This document shows positions 1 to 29,425 of a DNA stretch of 48,285 nt, in pieces (the stretch's first letter is position 1; every line of letters begins with the position of its first letter). Made by a program: the position numbers and the translations under genes. A model generated the notes under the pieces. That model made no database searches. It was not told the DNA's origin and worked only from the letters and a program-made list of their open reading frames with translations. The stretch lies in sequence record SRR22947725_3492. One strand, 5' to 3'.

Positions 1-5
1 TTTGA

Positions 6-1382
6 ATGATTGGATATTTAGCACTTGCAAGGGAAACCTTTGATGTTGAGTTTGCTGAGTCAAAATTCAGTAACGCCAAGTCACTTTTATTGTCGCTATC
101 TCCCAGTGCAATTGGCTTTAATGAGCTCATTACGAATGATGAAGATGCCAGTAAAGCTTTAGCATTTTTTAAAAGTAACCCCTGTGACAAAATTTTTCTC
201 TTTCAAACAACCTTTACAGACGCTAAATTTCTCTTAAATTTTGCTCAAGAAATCAACAAACCAATTTGCATCGTCTCGTTTCCAGAGCCGAGAACGGGTG
301 GAAGATTAAGGCTCAACTCGATTTGTGGCCTTAACCTGGGTATGCACTCATTAATAAAGAACAGCATTACTCCAGAATTTGTCATCATGGAGTCTGATGA
401 AAAAGTCAATGAGTCCTCATTTCTAGGTTTTATAAGCGGTACAGATGAAGCCAATCAACTGTCTTGGAAAGAGGCAACGATTAGTAACAATCACGCTGAT
501 TTTGATTACATTATTGACAAGCAAACTATAGGAATTATTGGAACTAGACCTGAAGGCTTTGATACCTGTGACTATGACTCCAATGAGGTAACGAGTAAGC
601 TCAATGTGTCTCTAATAGATCTCGAGCTTGAAGACCTTTTTGATGAAGCCAAAGAAGTTGAAGTAGATACTATTCTTAAAACCAAGAGCACTGTTTCAAG
701 TTATCTTCAAGGAACCGAGGATCTCGTTCAAGAAGAATTTGATAAAAGCCTTTCAATCTATCATGGTCTTGAGAGTTTAAAAGATAAGCACAATCTTGAC
801 GCCTTTGCGATACGATGCTGGCCAGAGACTTTCACAGAGTATGGATGCGCTTCATGTGGACCGATGGCAATGATGAATGAAAAAAAAGTAAGCTGCGCTT
901 GTGAGGCAGACGTACTTGGAGGAATTAGCTGCAACATACTTAACCAAATGAATGACAGCCCTTCCCTTCTTGTAGATATTGTTGACGTTGACAAAGCTGA
1001 CAATTCCTTAGTATTTTGGCATTGCGGTTTAGCGCCAATCAGTATGGCAAAAGAAGGTACTGCTAAATCTGGAATTCACTCTAATAGAAGAAAACCCCTG
1101 CTTCATGATTTCAGTCTTAAGGAAGGTGAAATAACTATATTTAGAGTTTCAAAAGCTCGAAACACACTTCAATTTTTCATTATGAAGGGCAAGGTTATTG
1201 ATAGACCAAACTCTTTTTCTGGAACCTCTGGAGTAATTAGTCTGGGTGAGAATAGTCCACAAAAATTAGAGGAAATGTTTAAAGGTGGACTTGAGCACCA
1301 TGTTGCATTTACTTATGGTGATATATCTGATCAATTAATTCATTTTGGTCAGCAAATGAATATACCCACATATACACTATGA
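6..1382 (+). CDS. L-fucose/L-arabinose isomerase-fold protein; probable sulfoquinovose isomerase (SqvD/SftI-like)
   Basis: 458 aa with FucI/AraA-family motifs AIRCWPE, CGPMAMM, ACEADVLG, LVDI, FWHCG and C-terminal EHHV. The SQ role is inferred from the neighbouring genes. A TGA at 3-5 directly precedes the ATG, which suggests the operon continues upstream. Confidence 0.7.
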   Translation: MIGYLALARETFDVEFAESKFSNAKSLLLSLSPSAIGFNELITNDEDASKALAFFKSNPCDKIFLFQTTFTDAKFLLNFAQEINKPICIVSFPEPRTGGRLRLNSICGLNLGMHSLIKNSITPEFVIMESDEKVNESSFLGFISGTDEANQLSWKEATISNNHADFDYIIDKQTIGIIGTRPEGFDTCDYDSNEVTSKLNVSLIDLELEDLFDEAKEVEVDTILKTKSTVSSYLQGTEDLVQEEFDKSLSIYHGLESLKDKHNLDAFAIRCWPETFTEYGCASCGPMAMMNEKKVSCACEADVLGGISCNILNQMNDSPSLLVDIVDVDKADNSLVFWHCGLAPISMAKEGTAKSGIHSNRRKPLLHDFSLKEGEITIFRVSKARNTLQFFIMKGKVIDRPNSFSGTSGVISLGENSPQKLEEMFKGGLEHHVAFTYGDISDQLIHFGQQMNIPTYTL

Positions 1383-2467
1383 CAGAGAAACTAAAATATG
1401 CAATTATTGGCGCAGGATGTATGGGCCAAGAGCACATACTTAATATAGATATTATTGATGATGCTGAGGTTGTTGCATTGTGCGATACTAGTGAAAAATC
1501 TATCAATGAATCTCTTGACTTACTTAATAATGATGTTGCTATTTTTGATAATTACATTGACCTTGTAGAGGCCAACATTGCAGATGCATTTATCATTGCA
1601 ACACCCAACTTTACTCACATTGAAGTTTTGAAAGAAGTAATGAAATCAGAAGCTCATCTTCTGATAGAAAAGCCTCTCTGTACAACTGTTAAGGACTGTC
1701 AAGAATTTGAAAAATTGGCAGTAGACTATCCGGGTGTTATTTGGACTGCGATGGAATATCGCTATATGCCACCTGTCCAAAGAATGATTAAAGAGATTCA
1801 TAACAAAACTATCGGTGATTTAAAAATGCTCTCTATTCGTGAGCACCGCTTTCCATTTCTTCATAAAGTTGATGACTGGAACCGCTTCGCTATAAAGACT
1901 GGGGGTACTCTGGTTGAAAAGTGTTGCCACTTTTTTGACCTAATGAGACTGATTGCTCAAAGTGAACCTCTAAAAGTTTATGCAAGTGGTGGCCAAGATG
2001 TTAACCATCTAGAAGAAACCTATGACGGAGAAACGCCTGATATTCTTGATAATGCGTTTGTCATTGTTGACTTTGAGAATGGAGTCAGAGCATTCCTAGA
2101 CTTGTGTATGTTTGCAGAAAACTCTGACTATCAAGAGGAGTTGTGCGCGGTTGGATCTTTAGGAAAAGTAGAAACTGAAGTGCCATCAAATTCCTCCGGA
2201 ATAACAAACTCAGACATCAGAATTGGACTCAGGGAAAATCAAACTGCACTCAAAGAAAACATAACTGTAGATGCTAAAATCCATCAGGCAGGACACCATC
2301 ATGGCTCAACATACTATGAACACACCTCGTTCATCAGCGCTATTCGCAATAACACCAAACCAGAAGTCTCGCTCAACGATGGCCTGATTGCTGTTGCAAT
2401 TGGTGAGGCCGCAGAAATCTCTATCAAAGAAGGGAGGGTTGTCCAGATGAGTGAATTTAACCTCTAG
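1379..2467 (+). CDS. sqgA: Gfo/Idh/MocA-family oxidoreductase; probable NAD+-dependent sulfoquinovosidase (GH188)
   Basis: Rossmann motif IIGAGCMG, ATPNFTH and EKP. It also has EYRY, REHRFPFLHKV (R-x3-L-x-K, with the Arg 30 residues after the Tyr) and C-terminal HHHGST, matching my recollection of the GH188 catalytic and sulfonate-binding residues. ATGA overlap with the upstream gene. Confidence 0.75.
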   Translation: MTEKLKYAIIGAGCMGQEHILNIDIIDDAEVVALCDTSEKSINESLDLLNNDVAIFDNYIDLVEANIADAFIIATPNFTHIEVLKEVMKSEAHLLIEKPLCTTVKDCQEFEKLAVDYPGVIWTAMEYRYMPPVQRMIKEIHNKTIGDLKMLSIREHRFPFLHKVDDWNRFAIKTGGTLVEKCCHFFDLMRLIAQSEPLKVYASGGQDVNHLEETYDGETPDILDNAFVIVDFENGVRAFLDLCMFAENSDYQEELCAVGSLGKVETEVPSNSSGITNSDIRIGLRENQTALKENITVDAKIHQAGHHHGSTYYEHTSFISAIRNNTKPEVSLNDGLIAVAIGEAAEISIKEGRVVQMSEFNL

Positions 2468-2503
2468 CAACACCAGCCACCTATTTTCATTACAATTGAC
2501 CCC

Positions 2504-3409
2504 ATGATTACTTGCGTTGGCCCTATTTTTCTAGACAGAGTTGTCAAAATTGATCGCTTTCCTGAAAAGCCAATCAAAATGGTAGCAAATGGACTTGAGA
2601 AGCGCCTCGGTGGGCCCTCTCCTGTTGCGAGCTTTGCGATTAAATCTCTTGGTGGCAATGCTGAATTTATTGGTAGATTTGGGAGTGACGATGCTGCTGA
2701 TTTTTTAAAGTCAGAGTTTATTAAGTCTGGTATCTCAACTCTTAAATCCATCATAGTTCAAGATGCTCAAACATCACAAAGCCACATCTTTGAAGATAAA
2801 AAAGGCGAAAGAATGCTGGCTGTCTTCAATGAAGATAAGCTCATCAATGAAAAAACGATGCCTATTTTTGATTTTTCCATTGGACAATCTTATCTTGTGG
2901 ACACCAACTGGATTGAAGCAGCCCATTACGTTGCAGTTCATTGTCAAAATAATAAGCTCAATTGTGTTGTTGATCTTGATAATTTCTCTAATAGCACTCT
3001 TCTTGAAGAGGTAGTTAATCTCTCGTCCCATCCAATTTTTTCTGAAATTGGCTTGAATCGATACACAAACAATAAACCCATCATTGATGCACTAAAAAGT
3101 CTCTATCAAAGTAACCCAAAATTTTATGCGGTAACCCTAGGATCTAAAGGCGTTTATTGGATCGACAATGGAGAAATTTTTCATTGTGACTCGCCTCTCG
3201 TTGAAGTAAAAGAAACGAATGGCGCTGGAGATGTTTTTCATGGCGCTTTTGCTCATTTCATTACTACTAAACCCATACAAGAGGCAATCGAACTTGCAAC
3301 AGCCACAGCATCCCTAAAGTGCACAATGATTGGCGGCATTAATAATCTACCCAACTCTAAAGACGTGGTAGAGTTTTCAAACCAATTACAACCTTCTAGA
3401 AAAATTTAA
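2504..3409 (+). CDS. yihV: PfkB-family kinase, sulfofructose kinase (YihV)-like
   Basis: PfkB motifs GGP, FIGRFGSD and ETNGAGDVFHGA. Colinear with E. coli YihV as I recall it (CVG..LDR, SQS....D.KGER, LS.H..FSE.GL, LKCT..GG). Confidence 0.7.
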   Translation: MITCVGPIFLDRVVKIDRFPEKPIKMVANGLEKRLGGPSPVASFAIKSLGGNAEFIGRFGSDDAADFLKSEFIKSGISTLKSIIVQDAQTSQSHIFEDKKGERMLAVFNEDKLINEKTMPIFDFSIGQSYLVDTNWIEAAHYVAVHCQNNKLNCVVDLDNFSNSTLLEEVVNLSSHPIFSEIGLNRYTNNKPIIDALKSLYQSNPKFYAVTLGSKGVYWIDNGEIFHCDSPLVEVKETNGAGDVFHGAFAHFITTKPIQEAIELATATASLKCTMIGGINNLPNSKDVVEFSNQLQPSRKI

Positions 3410-3410
3410 A

Positions 3411-4337
3411 ATGAAAAAAGTACTCATAACAGAATTCATGGAACAGGACAGTGTTGACAAAATGTCTAAACATTTTGAAGTCACTTATGATACAAACCTT
3501 CACGAGAATCTTGATAATTTAAGTTCTCTAATAGTGGATACAGATGCTGTCATTGTTCGAAATAAGACTCAGCTTAATGAAGCCCTACTGGCTAATGCAA
3601 AAAACTTGAGGTTTGTTGGAAGGCTTGGCGTTGGTTTAGATAATATTGACACTGAGTTCTGCTCTAATAACAATATCTTAGTGCAGCCAGCTTCAGGTAT
3701 GAATGCAGATTCTGTTGCTGAATACGTCATCACATGCGCCCTTTCTCTATTAAAAAATATCCCAATTGCAGACAGTGGCACCTCGTCGGGTCAATGGCCT
3801 AGAACCTCGATCGAGTCAAGGGAGCTAGGTGGAAAAACTCTTGGGCTAATCGGCTTTGGTGTAATCGGTAAAAAAGTATCTAAATTAGCTCAAGCTTTTG
3901 GAGCAGAGGTAATTGCCTATGACCCTTTTGTCTCTCAAGCGGATGCTCAAGAGCATCAAGTTTCATTAGTTAAGCAGGATGAGCTTTATACTCTTTCGGA
4001 TGTCATTTCGATTCACCTCCCACTAACCGATGAGACAAGCGATTTAATTAATGGAGATGCTTTTAATTTAATGAGAAAAAGTCCAATCATCATTAATTCA
4101 TCTAGAGGAACAATTGTCAACGAGGGTGACTTACTAGCAGCCTATCATGAAAATGTAATTAGTGGCTTTGCGCTCGATGTTTATAGCTCAGAACCAGTTA
4201 AAGCCGAATTCTATGATGAAATCTCTAGCTCAATGAACTGCATCCTTACTCCTCACACTTCGGGAGTTACATCTGAGTCCAACGTTAGGGTCAGTCAATT
4301 TATTGCTGAAAAGACGATTAGCTTTCTAGAAAATTAA
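3411..4337 (+). CDS. slcC: D-2-hydroxyacid dehydrogenase; probable (S)-sulfolactate dehydrogenase
   Basis: N-terminal [37 protein letters not shown] and [16 protein letters not shown], which are typical of the SlcC clade. At 308 aa it has no SerA ACT domain. Confidence 0.7.
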
Positions 4338-5833
4338 CGATTAGACAAAGTTCGCTTGACTGCTTCCTTCCATCCAGCGAGTTTTTTATCTCTTTCGTTG
4401 TCTGACATCTTAGAATTAAACTGACTCTCAGATTTCCATGATTTAGCAAAATCCTCCATGGCTGGGTAAAAACCGATTTGCATACCTGCCAAATAAGCAG
4501 CTCCAAGTGCAGTTGTCTCCAAGTTCTTTGGTCTATCAACAGGGAGCTGAAGTAAATCTGAAAGCGTTTGCATTGTCCAGTTTGAAGCCGCCATACCTCC
4601 ATCCACTCTAATTGCACTCAGCTTATGATCACCTAGATCTTTGGAAATTGCATTAAGCAGGTCTGAGGTTTGGTAGCAAACTGACTCAAGTGTAGCTTTT
4701 GTAATTTCAGCTGGCCCGGTACTCCTCGTTATACCGTAAAGAGCTCCGCGGCAATCTGGATCCCAATAAGGCGCTCCAAGTCCAACGAAAGCTGGAACAA
4801 GATAAACGTCTTGAGATAAATCTGCTTGCATTGCTAAGGAGTCAGACTGATCAGCTGATTCTATGATTTGGAGTCCGTCTCTAAGCCATTGGACGGCAGC
4901 GCCAGCTACAAATATTGAGCCTTCTAGGGCGAAGCACGTTTTGCTATTAACTTGGAAAGCTAGGGTAGTCAGCAACTTGTTATTAGATTTTATCGGCTTA
5001 TCGCCTGTATTTATCAATACAAAGCAACCCGTTCCATACGTAGACTTGACCATTCCTGGCTCAAAACATGCCTGACCAACAAGGGCAGAGGGCTGATCAC
5101 CTATCATAGCTGAAATAGGAATTTCAGCTCCAAAAATTGATTTATGGGCCATAGCAAAACTTGCTGCATTGTCGTTTACCTGAGGAAGCATTGTGGCAGG
5201 GACATTAAAGAGCTCTAGCATATCCTTATCCCATTGGCCTTCATGAATATTGTACAAGAGCGTTCGACAGGCATTCGTCGCGTCAGTTGAATGGACCTCT
5301 TGATTGCTTAATCGCCAAAGCAGAAAACTGTCAATTGTTCCAAAGAGTAACTCCCCATCATTCGCTTTTTTTCTGGCTCCCTCAACGTTATCTAAAATCC
5401 AGGCTATTTTAGTGCCACAAAAATAAGGGTCAAGCAGAAGACCCGTTTTATTAGTGACAAGATCCTCGTGTCCAAGATCCCGTAATTTTTGACAATGATC
5501 TGACGTCCTACGATCTTGCCATACAATGGCATTATAGATCGCTTTACCTGTCTTCTTATCCCATACGACTGTGGTTTCTCTTTGGTTAGTGATGCCTATT
5601 GCTGCAATCTGAGCGGGGTCAATTTTTGCTTTTTTAATAGCACTTTTGCAGCTCTCAAGCGTTGATTCCCAAATCTCTTCAGGATCATGCTCAACCCATC
5701 CTGAATCAGGAAAAATTTGTGTAAATTCTTTCTGACCAATTCCAGCTATTTCATAGTTACTGTCAAACAGTACTCCCCTAGATGAAGTTGTTCCTTGATC
5801 GATAGATAAGATATATTTTTTAGGCTCGCTCAT
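4334..5833 (-). CDS. glpK: Glycerol kinase
   Basis: [41 protein letters not shown] and [12 protein letters not shown]. Start moved to the ATG at 5833 ([10 protein letters not shown], 499 aa). The stop codon overlaps the slcC stop (TTAA at 4334-4337). Confidence 0.97.
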
Positions 5834-5840
5834 TCTACTT

Positions 5841-5855
5841 TTCCATATAATGGAA
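5841..5855. promoter_or_regulatory. Palindromic operator TTCCAT-N3-ATGGAA (putative IclR site) between glpK and the IclR gene
   Basis: TTCCATATAATGGAA lies 7 bp upstream of the glpK ATG. A near-identical copy is at 19891-19905. Confidence 0.7.
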
Positions 5856-5955
5856 CTAGGTTTTACTATTGTAAACTTAATCAAAAACAGTATACATTAT
5901 CTGATAAAATTTAACTCAATAATGAGCATTTAAAAATTAATCAAAAGATTATATT

Positions 5956-6747
5956 ATGACTATTGAAAAGAGAGGAGATGGAACGGTTGGTAAGGCACTA
6001 GATGTTTTAAGTGAAGTGGCTGAGATTGGCTCTCCCGTTAGATTTTCTAGCCTACTTAAAACTAGCAAATATCCAAAAGCAACTCTTTACAGACTTCTCC
6101 AAACGCTTCTTAATCAGGACATGCTCAGCTACAACGAAGAAGAGCAAACCTATAAATTAGGTCTAAAGCTGGTCAGAATGGCTCATTCTGCCTGGATGCA
6201 AAGCTCATTAGCACCAATTGCGGTGCCATTTATTGATGAACTCTCCGCCAAAGTGGGTGAAACCGTTCACCTAGCTGAACTCGACAACGGTCAAGTTTTA
6301 TATGTTGATAAGCGAAATCCTAGCTCATCGATTGAAATGTACTCACAGGCAGGCAAAGTTGGTCCTGCTTACTGTACGGGTGTAGGTAAGGCAATGATGG
6401 CTTTTTTAGAGGAGTCTGAACTTAGCAAAGTTATTTCTAAGCAAGCTTTCTTCAAGTATACAGATCACACAATTACCTCAGAGAAAGCCCTTAGAAAGGA
6501 GTTGACTATGATCAAAAAAGAAGGGATATCATTTGATCGTCAGGAGCATGAGGAAAAAATTATCTGTATCTCCTCTCCTATCCTTACATCCAATGGAAGG
6601 GTAATTGGGGGTCTCTCTATCACAAGCTCAACTGATATTCACAGTCTAGAAAGTCTTGAAAAATATAAACCTGAATTACTGGCAACTTCAGAGCAAATTG
6701 GCAAAGAGGCAGGCGCCTGGAGTTTCCCAGAAAAATCAATTAATTAA
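5956..6747 (+). CDS. IclR-family transcriptional regulator
   Basis: N-terminal HTH (GTVGKALDVL...PKATLYRLLQTL), GETVHLA, PAYCTGVGKAMMA and DRQEHE. Confidence 0.95.
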   Translation: MTIEKRGDGTVGKALDVLSEVAEIGSPVRFSSLLKTSKYPKATLYRLLQTLLNQDMLSYNEEEQTYKLGLKLVRMAHSAWMQSSLAPIAVPFIDELSAKVGETVHLAELDNGQVLYVDKRNPSSSIEMYSQAGKVGPAYCTGVGKAMMAFLEESELSKVISKQAFFKYTDHTITSEKALRKELTMIKKEGISFDRQEHEEKIICISSPILTSNGRVIGGLSITSSTDIHSLESLEKYKPELLATSEQIGKEAGAWSFPEKSIN

Positions 6748-6758
6748 TATAAATTACT

Positions 6759-7817
6759 ATGGCATCATTAAAGATAAAAAACGCAACAAAGAAATATGAT
6801 GATTTAGAGGTTATTCATGGCATCGATTTAGATATTCAGGATGGTGAATTTTGTGTTTTTGTTGGACCATCAGGTTGTGGTAAATCCACCTTACTGAGAA
6901 TGATATCTGGACTAGAGGATGTAACTAGTGGTGCAATTCATATTGGTGAAAAGAATGTCACCTCCATGCACCCCGCCGATAGAGGGATTGCTATGGTGTT
7001 TCAGTCTTACGCACTTTATCCTCACATGACAGTCAGAGAAAATATGGGATTTGGACTTAAGATGTCCAAGGTGCCTTCAAATGAAATTGATCAAAAAGTT
7101 AATGAGGCTGCGAGTATTCTTCATCTAGAGGAGTACCTAGACAGAAAACCTAAAACCTTGTCAGGTGGGCAAAGACAAAGAGTTGCCATTGGCAGATCAA
7201 TTGTTAGAGGCCCTGAAGTGTTTTTATTTGATGAACCTTTATCGAACCTTGATGCAGAGCTTAGAGTAGAAATGCGTGTTGAAATTTCGCGACTGCATCG
7301 TGAGCTTGGAACGACCATCATTTATGTCACCCATGATCAGGTTGAGGCGATGACATTAGCAGACAAGATAGTCGTCCTTAAGGATGGACTCATTCAACAA
7401 GTAGGTTCACCCTTATCTCTGTATGATGACCCAGAAAATGTTTTTGTTGCAGGGTTTATTGGTTCGCCAACTATCAACTTCGTCCAGGGCAGAGTTAACG
7501 GTGCAAAAATTATAGTTCCTAGCCTAGAGTCACTCAAACTGAATACTCCTAAAGATATAGATTCAAATCAATCAGAGCTATTAATTGGATTAAGACCTCA
7601 ACACATTCAGATTTCAGGTTCGGGCGATCTTGAAGTTGAATTTACTGAGGCTCTAGGTGATGTCTCTTACTTATATCTTAAAACTCCAAACGGAGAAAGA
7701 ATTGTTGTCGAATCAAGGGACGATAAATTACCGGAAACAGCTGCAAAAGTTGGTATCAAGGTCGACACTTCAAGAGCTTTATTATTTGACCCTACAAGTG
7801 AACTCAGAGTCAGATAA
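6759..7817 (+). CDS. Sugar ABC transporter ATP-binding protein (MalK/MsmK type)
   Basis: Walker [52 protein letters not shown] and a C-terminal TOBE-like domain. Confidence 0.96.
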
Positions 7818-7820
7818 AAA

Positions 7821-9728: not shown

Positions 9729-9735
9729 GACAGCC

Positions 9736-11201: not shown

Positions 11202-11206
11202 AACTT

Positions 11207-12115: not shown

Positions 12116-12123
12116 TATTTTTT

Positions 12124-12894
12124 TTATCCTGTAACTGCAACGCCGCCATCTATCACTAATGCTTGTCCAGTCATCATTCGAGATGCATTTGAAGCCAAGA
12201 ATAATGCTGAGTCAATTAGATCATTAGGCATTAGGTGCTCCTTAATGCATTGTTTTTCCATAGTAACTGCCAAATCTTTTTCATTTGCCCAAAGCTTTAC
12301 CTGTCTCTCAGTTAGAACCCATCCAGGAATCAACGTATTCACTCTAATTCCATCAGGACCAAGTTCTCTCGCTAAACTCCTGGTAAGACCTGTAATTCCA
12401 GCTTTAGAAGTAACATAAGCTGGTAGCCCAGCATTCCCTGTTAAATAGGAGTTAGATGAAAAATTAATGATGCTACCTCCACCCTGAGACTTCATCATTG
12501 GAGCTATAGCTTGAGCCGTAAAGAAATGTGGCTTTAGATTAATATTAATTGCTTCATCCCATTCTGCTGAGGTCATCTCTTCAAGCGTGTGACGCGAATC
12601 ATTTGCCGCATTGTTAATGAGCACATTTATTCCACCGTTGACTTGGCTTGCATGAGCTATTGCTTTCTTTAGATCATCTATGCGAGTAATATCGCATTTT
12701 ATAAATAATGGCTTGTGCTTATACTGTGAAGAAACTTTACTTAAAAATTCATCACAATCAGACCTTTGAACAAAGGCTACTTTGGCCCCTTGAGATAAAA
12801 ACCCTTCAGTTATGGAGGCGCCAATCCCAGAACCTCCTCCAGTTATAAAAACAGAAGTATCTTCTAAATCTTTAAAGGTTGCATAATTTTGCAT
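12124..12894 (-). CDS. SDR oxidoreductase; probable D-galactose 1-dehydrogenase
   Basis: TGGGSGIG, NNAANDSRH, YVTSK and PGWVLTERQ, typical of the aldose dehydrogenase SDR subfamily. De Ley-Doudoroff context. Confidence 0.8.
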   Translation of the reverse strand: MQNYATFKDLEDTSVFITGGGSGIGASITEGFLSQGAKVAFVQRSDCDEFLSKVSSQYKHKPLFIKCDITRIDDLKKAIAHASQVNGGINVLINNAANDSRHTLEEMTSAEWDEAININLKPHFFTAQAIAPMMKSQGGGSIINFSSNSYLTGNAGLPAYVTSKAGITGLTRSLARELGPDGIRVNTLIPGWVLTERQVKLWANEKDLAVTMEKQCIKEHLMPNDLIDSALFLASNASRMMTGQALVIDGGVAVTG

Positions 12895-14609
12895 TAGTGT
12901 GATTCTCGAGTTGGTAGGCGGGTATCTTTACCCACCAGAAAGTCTAAGTCTGCACCTTTGTCAGCCTGCATGACGTTATCAATATAAAGCTTTGCATAGC
13001 CGCGAGTGTAGTTCTCTTTTGGCTGCTTTCTAGATTTTAAGCGCTTTTCAATTTCAGATTCTGGAACGAGAAGCTCAAGCAAGCCTTGACTAACATCAAT
13101 TTGAATTCGATCGCCAGTCTCAACAATTGAAATCGGTCCACCCACATTTGCCTCAGGAGCAACATGAAGAACTATGGTTCCAAATGCTGTGCCTGACATT
13201 CGTGCATCTGAAATACGAATCATATCCCTCACGCCCTGCTCAACAAGTACCTTAGGGATTGGCATATTGCCAACTTCTGGCATTCCAGGATAGCCCTTGG
13301 GGCCACACCCTTTTAGAACTAGAATTGTATTTTTTGTAACAGGAAGATCAGGCCTATCAATATTAGCTTTCATATCCTCAATATCTTCAAATACATACGC
13401 CAAGCCTTCATGCTTAAGCAAGTCTTCTGTTGCAGCTGCTGGCTTAATGATTGCACCATCTGGCGCTAAGTTTCCTCTAAGAACTTTTAAGCCAGCAGAT
13501 GCCTTGAGAGGGGCTTTAAAAGTTTTAATGACCTCTTTATTTAATATTTCAGCCTCATCAAAATAATGAGTAATGTCTTTATTGAGAATTGTATTTGCTG
13601 GCTTAATATGGCTTCTGATCTGATCCATAACAGCTGGGATGCCACCTGCATAACAAAAATCTTCCATAAGATATTTGCCTGAAGGCATCAGATTGACTAG
13701 CAATGGAATATCTTCAGCCTTTTCAAAGTCTGCTAAGTTAAGCTCAATTTCTGCCCTTCCTGCTAACGCCAATAAGTGAATAACTGAATTTGTAGATCCA
13801 CCAATCGCACTGTTAAGGGTAATTGCGTTTTGGAAGCTTTCTTTGGTTAAAACTTTTGACAAGTTAAGCTCCTCTTCAACCATCTCTACAATTCTTTTTC
13901 CGGATAAATGAGCAAGTGTCAATCTCCTTGCGTCAACTGCTGGAAGTGTGGCATTAGTTGGCAAACTAAGGCCCATTCCTTCAACAAGACTGGCCATCGT
14001 AGAAGCTGTTCCCATTGTCATACATACTCCAGACGAGCGGCTCATCCCAGTTTCAGCAGCCATAAATTCTTTTAATGTCATATCTCCTGCTCTGACCTCT
14101 TCTGAAAAACGCCATACATCGGTACCAGAGCCAATATCTTGTCCTTTATATTTGCCATTTAGCATGGGGCCTGAAGAAACAACAATAGTTGGCAAATCGA
14201 CACTTGCCGCACCCATCAGTTGCCCAGGTGTCGTTTTATCACAGCCGCCCAATAGAACAACCCCATCTATTCCATATGCCCTAATACTTTCCTCTACATC
14301 CATCGATAAAAGATTTCTAAATAACATAGCGGTAGGTTTCATTTGAGTCTCACCTAAAGACATCACTGGAAACTCTAGAGGTACACCCCCTGCCTCCCAA
14401 ACGCCTCGCTTTACTCCTTCTGCTAGTTTTCTTAAGCCAGCATTGCAAGGGGTAAGCTCTGACCAGGTGTTACATATTCCGATAATTGGTCGACCGTCGA
14501 AAACATGGTCTGGAAGGCCTTGACTCTTCATCCAGCTGCGATGAATAAAGCCATCTTTATCCATTTTTCCGTACCAGTTTGATGAGCGTCGTTTGTTAGT
14601 TTTACTCAT
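12894..14609 (-). CDS. IlvD/Edd-family sugar-acid dehydratase; probable galactonate/arabinonate dehydratase
   Basis: IGICNTWSELTPCN, GGCDKTTPG, CMTMGTASTM, GGSTN, GPKGYPGMPE and ISDARMSGT. Confidence 0.88.
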   Translation of the reverse strand: MSKTNKRRSSNWYGKMDKDGFIHRSWMKSQGLPDHVFDGRPIIGICNTWSELTPCNAGLRKLAEGVKRGVWEAGGVPLEFPVMSLGETQMKPTAMLFRNLLSMDVEESIRAYGIDGVVLLGGCDKTTPGQLMGAASVDLPTIVVSSGPMLNGKYKGQDIGSGTDVWRFSEEVRAGDMTLKEFMAAETGMSRSSGVCMTMGTASTMASLVEGMGLSLPTNATLPAVDARRLTLAHLSGKRIVEMVEEELNLSKVLTKESFQNAITLNSAIGGSTNSVIHLLALAGRAEIELNLADFEKAEDIPLLVNLMPSGKYLMEDFCYAGGIPAVMDQIRSHIKPANTILNKDITHYFDEAEILNKEVIKTFKAPLKASAGLKVLRGNLAPDGAIIKPAAATEDLLKHEGLAYVFEDIEDMKANIDRPDLPVTKNTILVLKGCGPKGYPGMPEVGNMPIPKVLVEQGVRDMIRISDARMSGTAFGTIVLHVAPEANVGGPISIVETGDRIQIDVSQGLLELLVPESEIEKRLKSRKQPKENYTRGYAKLYIDNVMQADKGADLDFLVGKDTRLPTRESH

Positions 14610-16687
14610 AAAGCTATATCTCCCTCAATGACCAACATATTTGCAGGAAAAACTTTAGGAAGTTGTATACCTTGAGTCATCAAAAATTGACCACTTAGCT
14701 TTAATGTTTTGGTTAAAAGACCCTCTTTCAATTTACTCAACGAATTAATTTCTTTTTTGTTAACAAGAGAAACATTATACATCGTCATTGGGTTTAACCC
14801 CTCAAGCAACAAAGGAGTTGGAGAGCTAAATTTTGATGAATTACTTTGGCCCACAAAAACTACAAAATGATCTAGGCTAGCGTTAACTTGAATTTCAGCC
14901 ATCACACTTTCATCAATACTGGGTAAACGGAAAATACTCGCTTCTACCATCCATTGGCGGTTGACCTTCCACCAGGTAGTTACTGATTTAAGTAAGTCTT
15001 TGTCTTGTGAGTTCAATTCACGAGGATCCATTTCAAAACCCATGTGTCTTTGGGCGGCAACCCAAGCCCTAAATGACATAGATAATTCGCGTCCAGAGGT
15101 GTGGCAAATCTTAGGACCTACATGACTTCCAGTTACAGATATAGGAAGCCATAACAAAGCTTCATGTTGAATACGTAGCCTTTCTAGAGCATCATTACTG
15201 TCTGAAAGCCAAACTCTTTGAGCATATCTCAAAATACCATAATCAATGCGGCCACCACCTGAGGAACAAGACTCAATCTCAACCTCTGGGTGTGAGTCAC
15301 GAATCCGGTTCAGAAGCAGGTAAAGAGATCGTGTTTGGGACGCATCTGGATAGGGCAAAACTCGATTATGATCCCACTTAATATATTCAATTGGATAAAT
15401 TTCAAGTAAAGCGCTGACCTTCTCAAAGAGATAATCTTGAACCTCTTCCAATGAGATATCAAGAACTAACTGACCTCTTCCAAGCAATTGATTCTCATCT
15501 CCCATGATCCAATTTGGATGCTGACGATACAAGTCGCTATCAGGACTCACCATTTCTGGCTCAAACCATAACCCAAAAGTCATACCAAGAGACTGAATAT
15601 GATCAACCAATGGGCTTAGCCCCCGTGGATATTTAATTTCATCAACAGTCCAGTCGCCAAGGCTAGAATGGGCATTATGGCGACCCTTAAACCATCCATC
15701 ATCCAGTACAAATCTCTCAGCTCCAATATCAAAAGCGAGGCTTGCTATTTCTTTTAATTGATCAACATTATGGTCAAAATAGATAGCCTCCCAGCAATTG
15801 TAATGGACAGGTCTCAATTTATCCTTAGAAAAATTAACAATAGATTCTGCTACATGCGATCTAAATGCCTTACCAATTCCACTTAATCCCTCTGAAGAGT
15901 GACTAATAAATAATTCTGCCGTTTCAAAACTCTTACCCGGACTAAGCTCACTATTTTCAGTATTGCCAAATTGAATCTGCCTTCGTCCATCTGGAAGCTG
16001 CTCTGCTATCATTCGATGCCCGCCAGACCAGCCATAATGAAAACCATAGCAAGAACCTAAATTTTCTGAGCACGCCTTAGAAGGAATGATTAAACCAGGG
16101 AAATTAGCGTGGCTCGTTGTGCCAGATCTTGACTCCCTCATGTGCACTCCTGTGACCCACGGTGTTAATTGTTTTCTGAATTCTCCGCCCCACTGTCCTC
16201 CATAATCAATCATCTCATTACTGCTCTGAGAAGCAGCAATAACAGGGGTAGACAACCACTCCATATTGATTGGATTGTCACTTTCAATCTTGGCACTCAA
16301 AGCAAAAATATCATTACTTGAATAGGCAGTTATTGAAGCTATATAGGTTAAGTCTAGTGCTTTGTCAATATAGGTCAAAGCTAGTAGGTTATTATTAACC
16401 ACTTCACTTTGAAAAATAAAATGAGGCGATAGGATTTGGCCATTAATATCTCTTATCTTGCATCCAAGCTGTCCAGTAAAGTTAGCAGACTGTTCAGGAA
16501 GGATTGATAGATCAGGAACCTTATCTAATAAGTTATCACCCCAATCTTTTTTGGAGGCTTCAATTAGATCATCTAAACTTTCATCGCCCGGTAATTTCTG
16601 ACCCCAATAAATTAGGCACGGAACCCTATTGTCCAAAGATGACAATACTAGCGTTTGGTTATCAGTATCTAGGCGCCAGTGTTTCAT
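14606..16687 (-). CDS. Alpha-galactosidase, glycoside hydrolase family 36
   Basis: HYNCWEA, FVLDDGWF, FGLWFEPEMV, YIKWDHNR (nucleophile), ESCSSGGGR and WLSDSND (acid/base). Confidence 0.94.
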   Translation of the reverse strand: MKHWRLDTDNQTLVLSSLDNRVPCLIYWGQKLPGDESLDDLIEASKKDWGDNLLDKVPDLSILPEQSANFTGQLGCKIRDINGQILSPHFIFQSEVVNNNLLALTYIDKALDLTYIASITAYSSNDIFALSAKIESDNPINMEWLSTPVIAASQSSNEMIDYGGQWGGEFRKQLTPWVTGVHMRESRSGTTSHANFPGLIIPSKACSENLGSCYGFHYGWSGGHRMIAEQLPDGRRQIQFGNTENSELSPGKSFETAELFISHSSEGLSGIGKAFRSHVAESIVNFSKDKLRPVHYNCWEAIYFDHNVDQLKEIASLAFDIGAERFVLDDGWFKGRHNAHSSLGDWTVDEIKYPRGLSPLVDHIQSLGMTFGLWFEPEMVSPDSDLYRQHPNWIMGDENQLLGRGQLVLDISLEEVQDYLFEKVSALLEIYPIEYIKWDHNRVLPYPDASQTRSLYLLLNRIRDSHPEVEIESCSSGGGRIDYGILRYAQRVWLSDSNDALERLRIQHEALLWLPISVTGSHVGPKICHTSGRELSMSFRAWVAAQRHMGFEMDPRELNSQDKDLLKSVTTWWKVNRQWMVEASIFRLPSIDESVMAEIQVNASLDHFVVFVGQSNSSKFSSPTPLLLEGLNPMTMYNVSLVNKKEINSLSKLKEGLLTKTLKLSGQFLMTQGIQLPKVFPANMLVIEGDIAL

Positions 16688-17535
16688 TACTTCACAGCTC
16701 CTAAAGTTAAACCAGCAATAAAATGCTTCTGCATTAAAAAGAACATTAGGACTGGAGGTAGGGCTGCTATTATCGAGCCAGCCGATACAAGATGCTGATT
16801 ATAAACCCATTGTCCATTAAGAGAGTTTAAGCCTGCTGTAACAGGCATTGCATCTGCACCCTGAGTTAACACAAGGGCCCAAAAATAATCATTCCAAATA
16901 AATGTAAAAATAAGAACTGACAAAGCCGCCATGGCTGGTCGCATCAATGGAAGAACGACATACCAAAAAATTTTAAACTCCGACACGCCCTCAACCCTAG
17001 CTGCCTCAATTAACTCAAATGGAAGAGCGCGAATAAAGTTGCGCATGAAAAAGGTACAAAAGCCAGTCTGAAATGCAATATGAAAAACAACCAGCCCCCA
17101 AACTGAGTTATACAATCCAAGAGAGAGTGATAGGTCTCTTACAGGAACCATGAGTATTTGAAAAGGAATAAAGTTGCCAGCAACAAACATAAAAAAGACA
17201 AATAGGTTCAGTTTGAAACGGTAAACACCCAATGCAAAACCTGTAAGGCTTGATAAAACTAATGCACCAATCACGGTTGGAATAGTTATTTTAAAACTAT
17301 TTAAAATGTAGTAACCAAGGGGAGAATCTGTAAAAACAGCGGTGTAGTTTTCAATAAAGTTAATTGAAGTTGGCATTCCCCAGTAGTTTCCTGAATTAAT
17401 ATCTGCTCCAGAGCGTATCGAAGTTAAAGCGACAGCTATGAGCGGAAGAAGCCAAATAATAATAGATAGAGGAAGCGCTATCTTGTAGATCAGTTGAGTT
17501 GATGGCTTGGTTCTTTCAATGGGTGTTGGAAACAT
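16687..17535 (-). CDS. Carbohydrate ABC transporter permease (MalG type)
   Basis: Several TM segments, EAA loop ELIEAARVEG and WNDYFW. Confidence 0.93.
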   Translation of the reverse strand: MFPTPIERTKPSTQLIYKIALPLSIIIWLLPLIAVALTSIRSGADINSGNYWGMPTSINFIENYTAVFTDSPLGYYILNSFKITIPTVIGALVLSSLTGFALGVYRFKLNLFVFFMFVAGNFIPFQILMVPVRDLSLSLGLYNSVWGLVVFHIAFQTGFCTFFMRNFIRALPFELIEAARVEGVSEFKIFWYVVLPLMRPAMAALSVLIFTFIWNDYFWALVLTQGADAMPVTAGLNSLNGQWVYNQHLVSAGSIIAALPPVLMFFLMQKHFIAGLTLGAVK

Positions 17536-17537
17536 AA

Positions 17538-18425
17538 CTAACCGCCCTTCTCATCTTTATAGAGTCTGTAAAGTATCATGGCAATATAAATCATCATAAT
17601 TAACAACAAAACAACGGCAATAGCAGCGCCATATCCCATTCGAAATCCATATTCTGAGAAAGCCTTCTCATACATATAGTAAGCAAGAACCCTACTGGAT
17701 CCCCACGGGCCACCACCAGTCATAATATCAATTAAATCAAATGACCTTAATGCGCCTATTATTGTTACAACAACTGCAATAAAGGTTGCAGGTTTGAGCT
17801 GCGGTAATATGACGTACCACAACATTCTCCAGCCTCTCGCATTATCGATTCGACCGGCCTCAATTTGTTCTGGATCAACAGAGTTTAGACCCGTTAAGTA
17901 CAGAATCATACAATATGCTGTTTGAGGCCATAAACCGGCAGCAATAATGCCGTAAGTCACATAATCCTCTTCAGCAAGAATAGCGATGGTATCAAAACCA
18001 AAAAATTCTAAGATAATATTTAAAAGGCCATTTGAAGGGTCATAAAACCAACTAAAAACTAATCCAACAACTACCTGAGAAATAACAAATGGAAAGAAGA
18101 ATATAGATTTATAGATTCTAATGCCTCTGACTGTTTGATTAAGAAATAAGGCTGCAAAAAGGCCTGCAGGAACCGCTAATAAGTATAAAACAAGCCAAAT
18201 AACGTTATTTTTTAATGAAACAAAAAAGTACTCATCATCCATCAACTCAATATAGTTTTCAACACCAATATAGGTCTTTGTTCCAAGGCCATTCCATTGA
18301 TAGAAGCTTAAACTGATTGATTGGAAAATTGGGAAAATAACATACAGAGAAAACATGAATATCCCTGGAGCTAAAAAAATCCAAGGTGCTATCTTCAGTT
18401 GGTTATTTTTCCAGTAAGAATACAT
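17538..18425 (-). CDS. Carbohydrate ABC transporter permease (MalF type)
   Basis: TM segments, EAGRIDNA loop, LRSFD and MTGGGP. Confidence 0.93.
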   Translation of the reverse strand: MYSYWKNNQLKIAPWIFLAPGIFMFSLYVIFPIFQSISLSFYQWNGLGTKTYIGVENYIELMDDEYFFVSLKNNVIWLVLYLLAVPAGLFAALFLNQTVRGIRIYKSIFFFPFVISQVVVGLVFSWFYDPSNGLLNIILEFFGFDTIAILAEEDYVTYGIIAAGLWPQTAYCMILYLTGLNSVDPEQIEAGRIDNARGWRMLWYVILPQLKPATFIAVVVTIIGALRSFDLIDIMTGGGPWGSSRVLAYYMYEKAFSEYGFRMGYGAAIAVVLLLIMMIYIAMILYRLYKDEKGG

Positions 18426-18448
18426 GCAGATTCAATATTAAAAATATT

Positions 18449-18487
18449 AAAAAAAAGTCCCGTGTCAAGAATACTTGAACACGGGAC
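18449..18487 (-). terminator. Intrinsic terminator or mRNA-stabilising hairpin after the sugar-binding protein gene
   Basis: Minus strand reads GTCCCGTGT-T-CAAG-TATT-CTTG-ACACGGGAC followed by T8. Confidence 0.85.
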
Positions 18488-18505
18488 ATAGTAAAACCTT
18501 ATTGA

Positions 18506-19744
18506 TTAATAAAGTTTTTGACGAGCTTTTTCTAGACGCTCTAGAATTTTCTCTAAACGCTCTGGCTTAACCATGAACTCTTGAAAAGCTTCCATACCAA
18601 TTGAAGCCATTTCTGCTTTTGTGTCACGATCATAGAACTGAGCAACACCACCAGGTGCGTCATTATTAAGCATATTGAACGCTTGGTTTAGGAACTTGTC
18701 ATCAGTCACACCTGCACCAGCATTTGTAGGCAGCTGACCTAACGCTTTATTCCAAGCGGTTTGGACATCAGGACGTGCAGCATATGCTAGGAAACGCTTA
18801 GCATCAACTGGGTTTTTAGCACCAGCAGTTAGATGAATCGTATCAGTAGGTGCTTCCTCAGCCATTGGAACTCCCGGAGTAATTGCAGGGAACTGGAACA
18901 AACCTAGAGAACTATCATCTAAGCCTAACTCTTTTAATGGAGCAACAGCAAAGTTACCCATAATATACATTGCAGCCTCGCCACTAGCCATTGGAGCTAA
19001 AGCTTCCTGCCAGCTAAGTGCAGCATGGTTTTCGAGGAAAAAATCACCATCAATCAGCTGTTGGTAGTTTGCCATAGTAGCGCGCACTCTATCATCAGTC
19101 CAAGCAATGTCACCACTCGTTAATGCCATATGAAATTCATATCCATTTGTACGAAGGTTTAAGTAGTCAAATACACCGCCAGCAGTCCATAAATATTTAG
19201 AACCAATAGTAATTGGTGTAATGCCGTTAGCTTTTAAAGTTTCACCAGCAGCTATAAACTCGTCCCAATTAGTTGGAACAGCAATACCTAAATCTTCAAA
19301 GATATCTTGACGGTAGTAGACTCCCCAGTTGTAGTAAGTGTAAGGGATACCCCATTTCTGGCCATCCATAGTCATACCTGGAGCTGAAGAAGCCATCAAT
19401 GAATACAGACCTTGGTCAGCCCATACATCATCAATTGGAGCAAAAAGACCAGCTTCAACAAATGGAGCCATTCTATTTCCTGCATACCAGAAAGCAATAT
19501 CAGGTGCATCAGCACTAAGGAAGTTACGTATTGCAGCCTTGTAACCTTCATGATCAAAAAGGTTATAAACAACATCTACGTCTGGGTTTTCAGCTTCAAA
19601 TCCATCAATAACAGCCTGGAAAGCAGCTTTTGGTGCTGGATCTGACGTGTCACCATTGATGACGAGTGTTCCAGCAACAGCAGAAGTACCAGCCAGGATT
19701 CCAGCTAGCGCTAAAGCTATTTGATTTTTAAAAATTTTTTTCAC
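18506..19744 (-). CDS. Sugar ABC transporter substrate-binding protein (family 1)
   Basis: GTG start with SD AGGAGA at 19751-19756, a Sec signal peptide, APDI, WGIPYTYYNWGVYY and QFYDRD. Confidence 0.93.
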   Translation of the reverse strand: MKKIFKNQIALALAGILAGTSAVAGTLVINGDTSDPAPKAAFQAVIDGFEAENPDVDVVYNLFDHEGYKAAIRNFLSADAPDIAFWYAGNRMAPFVEAGLFAPIDDVWADQGLYSLMASSAPGMTMDGQKWGIPYTYYNWGVYYRQDIFEDLGIAVPTNWDEFIAAGETLKANGITPITIGSKYLWTAGGVFDYLNLRTNGYEFHMALTSGDIAWTDDRVRATMANYQQLIDGDFFLENHAALSWQEALAPMASGEAAMYIMGNFAVAPLKELGLDDSSLGLFQFPAITPGVPMAEEAPTDTIHLTAGAKNPVDAKRFLAYAARPDVQTAWNKALGQLPTNAGAGVTDDKFLNQAFNMLNNDAPGGVAQFYDRDTKAEMASIGMEAFQEFMVKPERLEKILERLEKARQKLY

Positions 19745-19890
19745 TTTTTATCTCCTATTATTTAAAAAAGTAAACTTCTTATTGATTACATACTTGTTGT
19801 GATGAAATTCACCTAAATATGACAAATCAATAGTTAGTATACATAAATATGAATACATGTGAATATATTTGTCCAACTATTAGTACCTTG

Positions 19891-19905
19891 TTCCATTATA
19901 TGAAA
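19891..19905. promoter_or_regulatory. Second copy of the putative IclR operator, upstream of the galactoside operon
   Basis: TTCCATTATATGAAA is 14/15 identical to the reverse complement of 5841-5855 (18/20 with the 5-bp flank). Confidence 0.65.
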
Positions 19906-20006
19906 CTTGTCAAAAAAAACATAGTAAATTCAACAATATCACCTTCTGAAAAAAATAATCTATTAAAGTGTAAAATGGCAATATTCATTTATAGGAGATA
20001 AATATC

Positions 20007-21418: not shown

Positions 21419-22438
<1,020 letters not shown>

Positions 22439-22499
22439 TCAAATAAAAATAATTCTATAGATATTACTATAAAGGATTAATACTAACAAAAATATTTTT

Positions 22500-23576: not shown

Positions 23577-23602
23577 ATAAATTTTTTTGTTACGTTATTG
23601 AT

Positions 23603-23644
23603 AAAAAAATCGCGCCTCAAGTATACCCTTGAGACGCGATTTTT
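23603..23644 (-). terminator. Intrinsic terminator hairpin between the two BMP genes
   Basis: Minus strand reads ATCGCGTCTCAAG-GGTATA-CTTGAGGCGCGAT followed by a T run. A G-U pair forms only on the minus strand. Confidence 0.85.
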
Positions 23645-23667
23645 ATTTTAATTAAATGGACTTTTTC

Positions 23668-25752: not shown

Positions 25753-25757
25753 AGTCT

Positions 25758-29415: not shown

Positions 29416-29425
29416 ATCTTTCTGC

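Follow-up and report, generated by a model that had tools for sequence, protein, structure and literature searches.

A variable slot in SUP05-clade genomes sets a predicted sulfoquinovosyl-glycerol module and a galactoside cassette beside a glycerol kinase gene

Few membrane lipids are as abundant as sulfolipid and galactolipids, whose water-soluble glycerol glycosides should be released in quantity when phytoplankton die. The locus described here, positions 6-19905 of a 48,285-nucleotide stretch of sequence record SRR22947725_3492 (hereafter, the window is this whole stretch), raises the question of whether a marine bacterium salvages several of these head groups by means of one set of neighboring genes. 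The region carries putative sulfoquinovose genes, a glycerol kinase gene (glpK) and a cassette of galactoside genes, and an earlier note on this DNA had read them together as a glycosyl-glycerol utilization island. By comparing the locus with those of related genomes, metagenome contigs and solved protein structures, we arrive at a narrower reading. We propose that the locus is a variable slot that collects catabolic modules for glycerol-linked head groups, with a sulfoquinovosyl-glycerol (SQGro) module and a galactoside cassette set beside glpK, and we put the probability of this reading at roughly one half. As regards the island of the earlier note, the SQGro module and its tie to glpK have held up, whereas the dedication of the galactose genes to galactosyl-glycerols is less certain, the same cassette being found elsewhere without glpK.

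By the open reading frame (ORF) listing and the Pfam and NCBIfam profiles, 17 ORFs occupy positions 6-19744 and form three groups. The first group, on the plus strand, encodes a FucI-family isomerase, a Gfo/Idh/MocA protein, a PfkB kinase and a D-2-hydroxyacid dehydrogenase resembling phosphoglycerate dehydrogenase (PGDH). The second consists of glpK, which is convergent with the sulfoquinovose genes, and of the genes for an IclR-family regulator and a MalK/UgpC-type ATPase, which are divergent from glpK. The third is a ten-gene operon on the minus strand that encodes, in the order of transcription, a binding protein, two permeases, a glycoside hydrolase (GH) of family 36, an IlvD-type dehydratase, a short-chain dehydrogenase/reductase (SDR), DgoK, DgoA, an SMP-30 lactonase and a GH42 protein. 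All genes named in the earlier note are thus present, each at its position and contiguous in about 20 kb, and its observation that glpK sits between the two blocks with neither glpF nor glpD beside it is confirmed for the window, among whose ORFs the Pfam and NCBIfam profiles find no GH31, glpF or glpD.

The host is a member of Candidatus Thioglobus/Pseudothioglobus of the SUP05 clade, a marine gammaproteobacterial sulfur bacterium with a 1.7 Mb genome. Close homologs are labelled "Candidatus Thioglobus sp." by their sources, and one locus (SqgA 92% identity) is titled "Candidatus Pseudothioglobus aerophilus". The nearest genome (G001) shares 98% DNA identity with the first 1400 bases of the window and has an identical gene order. 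The left end of the window truncates the sulfoquinovose block; in G001, the DNA directly to the left carries a DeoC/LacD-type aldolase gene, which ends at the first bases of the window, beside a divergent four-gene ATP-binding cassette (ABC) importer (binding protein, two permeases and ATPase), referred to below as the sulfoquinovose importer. The features of the sulfoquinovose block and the adjoining glpK in the window are as follows.

6-1382, plus strand: candidate sulfoquinovose isomerase of the SqvD/SftI type, FucI family (PF02952; NF048012)
1379-2467, plus strand: predicted NAD+-dependent sulfoquinovosidase SqgA, GH188 (PF01408, PF02894; 8QC2, 8QC3)
2504-3409, plus strand: candidate sulfofructose kinase, PfkB family, YihV-like (PF00294; 7AG6)
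3411-4337, plus strand: D-2-hydroxyacid dehydrogenase, PGDH-like, last enzyme of the sulfoquinovose block (PF02826, PF00389)
4334-5884, minus strand: glycerol kinase GlpK (TIGR01311), whose likely true start is the ATG at 5836

The substrate of the left block is indicated foremost by the Gfo/Idh/MocA protein. It matches the solved structures 8QC2/8QC8 with an E-value of 1.2e-110 (373 bits) and 8QC3/5/6 with 5.7e-107 over residues 3-359, and the next unrelated dehydrogenase in the structure search scores 82 bits only. The PDB entries 8QC2 and 8QC3 are FlSqgA and ArSqgA, the founders of the NAD+-dependent sulfoquinovosidase family GH188; the accessible part of their description gives Lys107, Tyr136, Glu189, His193 and His321 as the catalytic residues of ArSqgA, and Arg166, Leu170 (backbone) and Lys172 as its sulfonate triad (PMC10755693). 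In an alignment to solved SqgA, with the published numbering mapped to the chain index by hand (offset 13), all eight residues are identical in the window protein, and the stretches EKP, EYRY, EHRFPFLHK, LVEKCCHF and HHHGSTYYEH are conserved. The protein has no signal peptide, as judged from its N-terminus by eye. SqgA was found in 19 of the 43 analyzed genomes of the genus and in none of 79 genomes from 18 other genera of the family. GH31 was found in none of the five genus genomes searched for it, four of them 99% complete, and SqgA is therefore the sole candidate sulfoquinovosidase. We conclude that the window protein is an SqgA-type sulfoquinovosidase, for which cleavage of SQGro is predicted from sequence; the sulfoquinovosidase suspected in the earlier note is upheld, its type being GH188 and not GH31.

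The other members of the block are less close to their characterized counterparts. The only NCBIfam match of the isomerase, full length, is to the SftI model NF048012, with 300.6 bits against a cut-off of 700, and no solved relative was found at E<=0.001; its gene adjoins sqgA in relatives and in other phyla. The top solved match of the kinase is the E. coli sulfofructose kinase YihV (7AG6, E-value 2e-41), followed by a runner-up at 1.4e-29. The top solved matches of the 2-hydroxyacid dehydrogenase are phosphoglycerate dehydrogenases. Copies of this protein adjoin sqgA in Pelagibacteraceae genomes and metagenome contigs (54-60% identical) and are present in alphaproteobacterial sulfoquinovose clusters (43-46% identical); the recurrence of the PGDH-like dehydrogenase beside sqgA in many lineages indicates that it belongs to the sulfoquinovose system. 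As a guess at its reaction, it may reduce sulfolactaldehyde or oxidize sulfolactate, the sulfonate analog of 3-phosphoglycerate. The aldolase of G001 (L002 18987-20000) is of the DeoC/LacD family. Its closest solved relative, 8TNF (3.6e-83), is deposited only as "DUF2090 domain-containing protein", and a search under this PDB code turned up no paper; the matches to the tagatose-bisphosphate aldolase LacD (5e-40) and to YihT (3e-17) are weaker. By tblastn, the aldolase was not found in the G022 and G041 loci.

These distances leave a small place for the view that the left block acts on a non-sulfonated glycoside or a 6-deoxy sugar and that the Gfo/Idh/MocA protein is an ordinary sugar dehydrogenase. 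The low score of the isomerase against the SftI cut-off, the nearness of the aldolase to 8TNF and to tagatose-bisphosphate aldolases rather than to YihT, and the lack of a YihU- or SlaB-type enzyme in the block would all agree with it. We nevertheless consider this view very improbable, given the SqgA-level similarity of the protein as compared with the next dehydrogenase, the conserved sulfonate-binding Arg, Lys and Leu positions, and a kinase that matches a sulfofructose kinase first. Moreover, isozymes of the sulfoglycolytic Embden-Meyerhof-Parnas (sulfo-EMP) route are frequently exchanged among clusters, and several sulfoquinovose pathways make use of the FucI-type isomerase SqvD/SftI, according to the accessible part of PMC9594981; because such swapping is documented, we read the block as a hybrid sulfo-EMP pathway.

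In the proposed scheme, the ABC system would import SQGro, which the cytoplasmic NAD+-dependent SqgA would split into sulfoquinovose and glycerol. The hybrid pathway (SftI/SqvD-type isomerase, YihV-type kinase and class I aldolase) would convert sulfoquinovose to dihydroxyacetone phosphate (DHAP) and sulfolactaldehyde, the latter probably being processed by the 2-hydroxyacid dehydrogenase. GlpK would trap the released glycerol, and GlpD, which is encoded elsewhere in this lineage, would yield a second DHAP, so that SQGro would become a six-carbon substrate.

Two further observations concern the sulfoquinovose genes of the genus. A DeoR/GlpR-family regulator is encoded in or beside the sulfoquinovose block in most relatives (for example, at L017 3259-4065 in G034, and at five other loci); G001 has no such regulator there, its intergenic gap being 217 bp as compared with about 1.1 kb in the relatives. 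Sulfoacetaldehyde acetyltransferase (Xsc) is encoded in all five genus genomes searched (G001:C1:798249-799982, as well as G034, G019, G042 and G018), with about 1012-1018 bits against a cut-off of 676, from which the genus is predicted to be able to desulfonate a C2 sulfonate.

Homologs of SqgA with 63-67% identity were also observed on 16 genome contigs of Pelagibacteraceae (SAR11). In the 14 SAR11 contigs with enough sequence, a copy of the 2-hydroxyacid dehydrogenase (54-59% identical) lies right beside SqgA. The SqgA neighbors on one of these contigs (L037 3071-15869) include a tripartite ATP-independent periplasmic (TRAP) transporter (DctQMP), a CCP_MauG-like protein, a PhyH-type dioxygenase, a 2-oxoglutarate-Fe(II) oxygenase and a ketopantoate-reductase-like protein; isomerase, kinase and aldolase are all absent from this neighborhood. 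This gene content hints at an oxygenolytic sulfoquinovose route in SAR11, a group that is not named in the main texts of PMC10755693 and PMC12780224.

A further question is whether glycerol kinase belongs with the sulfoquinovose genes. GlpK is identified at the equivalog level, with 693.3 bits against a cut-off of 590.35 for TIGR01311 and 742.6 against 498 for NF000756, and the GlpK proteins of relatives align from about residue 15. G001 possesses a single glpK at E<=1e-60. Its GlpD is encoded 390 kb away, beside a GlpR-like regulator and a Ugp-like importer, and no GlpF-like facilitator was recognized in this genome, the only MIP channel of which scores 157 bits as aquaporin Z and 62 bits as aquaglyceroporin. 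Among the 43 genus genomes, GlpK is present in 31, GH42 in 19 and GH36 in 17. In eight genomes, a single contig carries SqgA, GlpK and GH42 within about 10 kb of one another. GlpK is found at most 10 kb from SqgA in 11 of the 19 SqgA-bearing genomes and at most 4 kb from GH42 in 16 of the 19 GH42-bearing genomes, including G042 and G050, which have no SqgA; the exceptions are G048, whose glpK is on a different contig, and two genomes of 79-80% completeness, G020 and G054, in which no glpK was seen.

We mapped the slot by tblastn and Pfam in 14 genus genomes (G001 and 13 others). Its flanks are fixed, with TatC, adenosine deaminase and Bmp on one side and 8-oxoguanine deaminase, a LexA-like protein and UmuC on the other, and its contents vary. 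G001 has the arrangement of the window, and G034 has the same arrangement plus a DeoR regulator. G050 and G046 lack the sulfoquinovose block and have the galactose cassette, its iclR being divergent from glpD-glpK. In G042 (L007 342-8495), the galactose cassette and the divergent iclR and glpK genes are followed by glpD, a HAD hydrolase gene, ugpBAEC (UgpB, 501 bits against a cut-off of 411) and a DeoR regulator gene in place of the sulfoquinovose block. A 53-residue remnant of the ATPase of the sulfoquinovose importer is retained beside the conserved flank of this genome, which points to loss or replacement of the block; the replacement by glpD, UgpBAEC and DeoR suggests that the slot gathers functions for glycerol moieties. 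The G055 locus has no galactose cassette and consists of a one-strand operon deoR-aldolase-isomerase-sqgA-glpK-pfkB-dehydrogenase, G048 has glpD-glpK-pfkB-dehydrogenase, and in G022 the sulfoquinovose importer is divergent from deoR-glpD-glpK.

Marine metagenome contigs agree with the binned genomes, independently of binning. Among 16 contigs with SqgA of at least 78% identity, eight carry glpK and/or glpD, three of them in the layout of the window and five with one or both of these genes inside the operon or immediately adjoining it. The contig L145 has sqgA-glpD-glpK-pfkB-dehydrogenase with gaps of 9-80 nucleotides (nt), and in L138 and L139 the tblastn match of glpD starts 14 nt before that of sqgA ends. 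Taken with the genomes, glpK and/or glpD separate sqgA from the kinase gene, all on one strand, in G055, L138, L139 and L145, and immediately precede the kinase gene in G048, L137 and L141. A linkage that outlasts so many rearrangements argues for selection, beyond inheritance, and the coupling of sulfoquinovose and glycerol utilization is well supported in this lineage.

The same data allow one to weigh the possibility that the three modules are unrelated neighbors, with glpK as an ancestral resident of the slot that serves free or glycerophosphodiester-derived glycerol. It would account for glpK in genomes (nine of the 31 that carry it, some of them incomplete) that showed neither SqgA nor GH42, for the company of glpD, ugpBAEC and a GlpR-like regulator near glpK in G042, and for a window glpK that is monocistronic and convergent with the sulfoquinovose operon. 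It is at odds with the same-strand embedding of glpK and glpD in sulfoquinovose operons, which is hard to explain without selection for co-expression, and with the lack of a recognized GlpF-like facilitator in G001; in addition, the same coupling was proposed independently for Firmicutes, as stated in the accessible parts of PMC7491151 and PMC11968277. On balance, we find such an unrelated set of neighbors unlikely.

The galactoside cassette, the remaining part of the proposed slot, consists of the following features.

5956-6747, plus strand: IclR-family regulator (PF01614, PF09339)
6759-7817, plus strand: MalK/UgpC-type ABC ATPase (NF008653, 473 bits against a cut-off of 432)
7821-9728, minus strand: GH42 beta-galactosidase, cytoplasmic (PF02449, E-value 5.5e-145; PF08532; solved relatives 6Y2K, 1.4e-202, and 1KWG, 8.9e-196)
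9736-10599, minus strand: SMP-30-type sugar lactonase, candidate galactonolactonase (PF08450, E-value 1.7e-66)
10599-11201, minus strand: 2-dehydro-3-deoxy-6-phosphogalactonate aldolase DgoA (NF006600, 238.6 bits against a cut-off of 207)
11207-12115, minus strand: 2-keto-3-deoxygalactonate kinase DgoK (PF05035, E-value 3.4e-93)
12124-12894, minus strand: SDR sugar 1-dehydrogenase, candidate galactose dehydrogenase (PF13561; D-xylose 1-dehydrogenase model, 275.7 bits against a cut-off of 400)
12894-14609, minus strand: IlvD/EDD-family sugar-acid dehydratase, candidate galactonate dehydratase (NF004784, 874.6 bits against a cut-off of 539)
14606-16687, minus strand: GH36 alpha-galactosidase, cytoplasmic (PF02065, E-value 1e-101; PF16875, PF16874; AgaB 4FNQ and AgaA 4FNR, about 1e-92)
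16687-18425, minus strand: two ABC permeases of the galactoside importer (PF00528 twice)
18506-19744, minus strand: family-1 solute-binding protein of the galactoside importer (PF01547; AcbH 3OO6)

The dehydratase scores 790 bits against the L-arabinonate dehydratase model (cut-off 882) and is of the IlvD/EDD type, unlike the classical enolase-type DgoD. The placement of the SDR, lactonase and dehydratase genes between those for DgoK/DgoA and GH36 fits galactose as the sugar. The galactoside operon has no ATPase gene of its own and its pairing with the MalK/UgpC-type ATPase gene is conserved, so that this ATPase probably energizes the galactoside importer. Among solved proteins, the binding protein is closest to AcbH (3OO6, E-value 2.5e-50, nearly full length). 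N-termini read by eye are signal-peptide-like in this protein and in the binding protein of the sulfoquinovose importer, and GH36 and GH42, like SqgA, have no signal peptide; this distribution argues that the glycosides are imported intact and the aglycone is freed inside the cell. The cassette would thus import small galactosides, GH36 and GH42 would cleave alpha- and beta-galactosidic bonds in the cytoplasm, and galactose would be consumed by the De Ley-Doudoroff route. We found no published substrate assignment for this cassette.

Within the operon, DgoA and DgoK (10599-12115) share only 71% and 87% identity with the G001 proteins, as compared with 95-100% for all neighboring proteins, which suggests a local recombination patch. 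The contigs of RNA libraries described below show several skips over the same interval.

To place the cassette outside the genus, 401 genomes of the phylum were sampled, and 21 genomes besides G001, 13 of them among the 19 sampled genomes of one family, contain a homolog of the binding protein at E<=1e-100. Homologs of the binding protein are labelled by their sources as Sulfitobacter, Maritalea, Thalassovita, Oceanospirillaceae and others. Of the 21 loci, all but that of G221, a second genome from one genus, make up the comparison set of 20. The iclR and ATPase genes are divergent from the binding-protein gene in 14 of the 20 loci, DgoK and DgoA are encoded in 16, GH42 in 15 and GH36 in 13, with three of the stretches ending before the expected position of GH42. 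The cassette elsewhere in Pseudomonadota thus has the same order, with 40-76% protein identity and with individual loci that have no GH36 or dehydratase; the permeases and the dehydratase are 59-76% identical between the genus and the other sampled genomes. As far as sequence comparison goes, these identities are consistent with horizontal transfer of the whole cassette. The iclR and ATPase genes occupy the binding-protein end elsewhere and the GH42 end in this genus, back to back with glpK or glpD-glpK. The pairing kept outside the genus makes IclR a part of the cassette; a back-to-back arrangement with glpK is peculiar to this genus.

Two explanations compete for this arrangement. According to the first, the locus is a salvage island, in which the SUP05-clade bacterium imports deacylated thylakoid head groups (SQ-glycerol, Gal-glycerol, digalactosyl-glycerol and perhaps floridoside) and passes their shared glycerol to a single GlpK. 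The setting of the IclR/ATPase end of the cassette against glpK would suit the glycerol-releasing substrates beta-Gal-glycerol, alpha-Gal-1,6-beta-Gal-glycerol and floridoside, and the genus-conserved glpK or glpD-glpK neighbor, the marine habitat and the cytoplasmic galactosidases for opposite anomers behind one importer fit such a link. We hold the full island tentatively, at clearly less than even odds. Galactosyl-glycerols and floridoside are only what we infer as substrates, because the cassette outside the genus is accompanied by glpK in none of the 20 loci.

According to the second explanation, the sulfoquinovose module alone is coupled to glycerol, and the cassette was acquired independently, by horizontal transfer, to use small galactosides of other kinds (melibiose- or raffinose-type, lactose-type or oligomers derived from galactan) or to scavenge galactose, its place beside glpK being due to an insertion-prone slot in a very compact genome. 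This is in line with a conserved unit that has its own IclR and ATPase in 13 of the 19 genomes sampled from one family and also in further families, with its consistent separation from glpK there, with protein identities of 52-76% to these copies that suggest transfer, with a slot that varies between fixed flanks, and with AcbH as the nearest solved relative of the binding protein. It does not readily explain why glpK or glpD-glpK abuts iclR in every examined genus locus with iclR, even where the sulfoquinovose block is missing (G042, G050 and G046), or why the glpK/iclR control region is strongly conserved; and cytoplasmic GH36 and GH42 behind one importer would suit digalactosyl-glycerol, with its one alpha-1,6 and one beta bond. 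To our knowledge, raffinose, melibiose and lactose are not expected as major solutes of open seawater, which also counts against it. An independent cassette of this kind is possible, and we would bet against it rather than on it.

Several findings weigh against the proposed slot for glycerol-linked head groups as a whole. The linkage of glpK to both blocks, the check put forward in the earlier note, holds within the genus, near GH42 and inside sulfoquinovose operons, but fails outside it: cassettes of the same order have glpK within about 10 kb in none of the 20 loci and glpD in one (L123), and glpK is near sqgA in only one of 79 sqgA loci, that of an Aliihoeflea genome (L070), with glpD-glpK within 10 kb. 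Among 64 metagenome contigs with SqgA below 78% identity, L154 alone has glpK near sqgA, 4.7 kb downstream. Inside the genus, apart from the nine genomes with glpK and neither block, G018 (95% complete) has the sulfoquinovose block and no glpK at E<=1e-60, and the window glpK, convergent with the sulfoquinovose operon, is co-transcribed with neither block. On the enzymatic side, the isomerase, SDR and aldolase score below the curated equivalog models for their proposed functions or are not covered by them, and a YihU- or SlaB-type enzyme is absent from the sulfoquinovose block, to which that search was confined. On the transport side, the binding protein of the sulfoquinovose importer does not match SmoF, the SQGro binder of solved structure, at E<=0.001 and has no informative solved relative, and AcbH, the nearest relative of the galactoside-binding protein, is one that we take to bind free beta-D-galactopyranose only.

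Two control regions of the locus are as follows.

5885-5955, no strand assigned: divergent glpK/iclR control region, with the 9-mer ATGTATACT at 5889-5897 (minus strand)
19745-19990, no strand assigned: galactoside operon promoter region, with the bipartite CATGTAT-N8-ATGTATAC at about 19837-19859 (minus strand)

In four other species of the genus, the sequence is almost unchanged over about 50 nt around the glpK/iclR motif. The 9-mer ATGTATACT occurs twice in the window (0.34 expected), in the glpK/iclR and galactoside promoters; G001 has it in its sulfoquinovose promoter as well, and in relatives it recurs at corresponding positions. A role of this 9-mer as a shared IclR operator was considered and rejected: G001 has 10 copies, as does the backwards-read control; four of the other seven G001 copies precede, in the same orientation, the genes for Peripla_BP_4, TRAP DctP, OpuAC and ATP sulfurylase; and G018 and G022 bear the motif at the sulfoquinovose promoter yet have no IclR ortholog. 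The 9-mer is half of a 23-base bipartite element, CATATAT-N8-ATGTATAC, of which glpK has the right half only. The bipartite element is found 40-145 nt upstream of, and co-oriented with, the ATP sulfurylase gene and five solute-binding protein genes (those of the sulfoquinovose importer, the galactoside importer, Peripla_BP_4, TRAP DctP and OpuAC), and of the 10 copies of the right-half 9-mer in the genome, seven have such an upstream, co-oriented position. The element is genome-wide and not specific to the locus, and it may be the site of a global regulator or a strong-promoter module for uptake genes.

Contigs of RNA libraries from four marine metatranscriptome studies cover 29-30 of the 30 bins of window positions 1-20000. 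The summed depth of RNA contigs over the gene of the galactoside-binding protein is roughly 10-50 times that of other bins in three of the four runs, which is a hint, as contig depth cannot rank genes, DNA carry-over is possible for evenly covered genes and low-cover bins are no sign of silence.

Genes of purine and nucleoside catabolism surround the island. On its right side (window 21419-36076), there are genes for adenosine deaminase, Bmp-type nucleoside ABC systems, XdhABC-like proteins, an amidohydrolase and a urate oxidase domain protein; its left flank in G001 is 8-oxoguanine deaminase (L002 12507-13871).

The turnover of sulfoquinovosyl compounds is estimated at about 1.5 Pg carbon a year in the accessible part of PMC12780224, and the main texts of the literature consulted present SQGro and sulfoquinovose as consumed in the sea chiefly by Alteromonadaceae and Roseobacteraceae. 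The locus adds a genus of the SUP05/Arctic96BD-19 type to the candidate consumers. In the variants with embedded glpD-glpK, a bacterium that keeps three carbons of sulfoquinovose could double its yield by using the aglycone. Should galactosyl-glycerols be substrates of the cassette, one could test directly what becomes of galactolipid head groups in the sea, the cassette being widespread in roseobacter-like genomes; and if the salvage-island explanation is true, the locus provides the first genetic handle on marine consumers of these head groups.

How the locus relates to known systems can be seen from four comparisons. The route proposed here, from sulfoquinovose to DHAP and sulfolactaldehyde, is the same as that of the E. 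coli yih operon (YihQ, YihS, YihV, YihT and YihU). The window kinase is a homolog of YihV and the G001 aldolase a distant class I relative of YihT; unlike the yih operon, the block has no homologs of YihQ, YihS and YihU and encodes instead the GH188 protein, the SftI-type isomerase and the 2-hydroxyacid dehydrogenase. As compared with Actinoplanes AcbH (PDB 3OO6), the window binding protein belongs to an operon that encodes two cytoplasmic galactosidases, and this speaks for the import of glycosides.

The clusters of the Arthrobacter sp. AK01 type resemble the locus in that an NAD+-dependent SqgA, with the active-site residues conserved, replaces GH31 beside isomerase, kinase and aldolase. According to the accessible part of the same report, SQGro is a six-carbon and sulfoquinovose a three-carbon substrate for AK01, which reaches about twice the density on SQGro that it does on sulfoquinovose because it consumes the glycerol as well (PMC10755693). 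The window differs from these clusters, as far as that part describes them, in its FucI/SftI-type isomerase, in a terminal enzyme that is a 2-hydroxyacid dehydrogenase and not a sulfolactaldehyde dehydrogenase, and in glpK/glpD that are linked to, or in relatives embedded in, the cluster of a marine SUP05-clade gammaproteobacterium. The main text of PMC10755693 names neither SUP05 nor SAR11, and its supplements may list more taxa.

[quoted passage not shown] These are gut and soil clusters with transaldolase and GH31 and, in those parts, with no adjoining galactoside cassette, whereas the genus studied here uses kinase and aldolase together with GH188. The main texts on aquatic sulfoquinovose, PMC13436972 (a 2026 review) and PMC12780224, contain none of the terms "glycerol kinase", "glpK" and "SUP05", and that of PMC12780224 also none of "SAR11", "Pelagibacter" and "Thioglob"; supplements may list more taxa. 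In the accessible literature on the catabolism of galactosyl-glycerol or floridoside by marine bacteria, we found no description of a gene cluster. The novelty that the earlier note had claimed for a combined system thus stands for the association of the sulfoquinovose block, glpK and the galactoside cassette, of which we found no description in the literature, and does not extend to glycerol kinase in sulfoquinovose clusters, already published for Firmicutes. The coupling of sulfoquinovose and glycerol utilization is a known idea; the SUP05-clade locus extends it to a lineage, a pathway variant and an enzyme family that are new to it.

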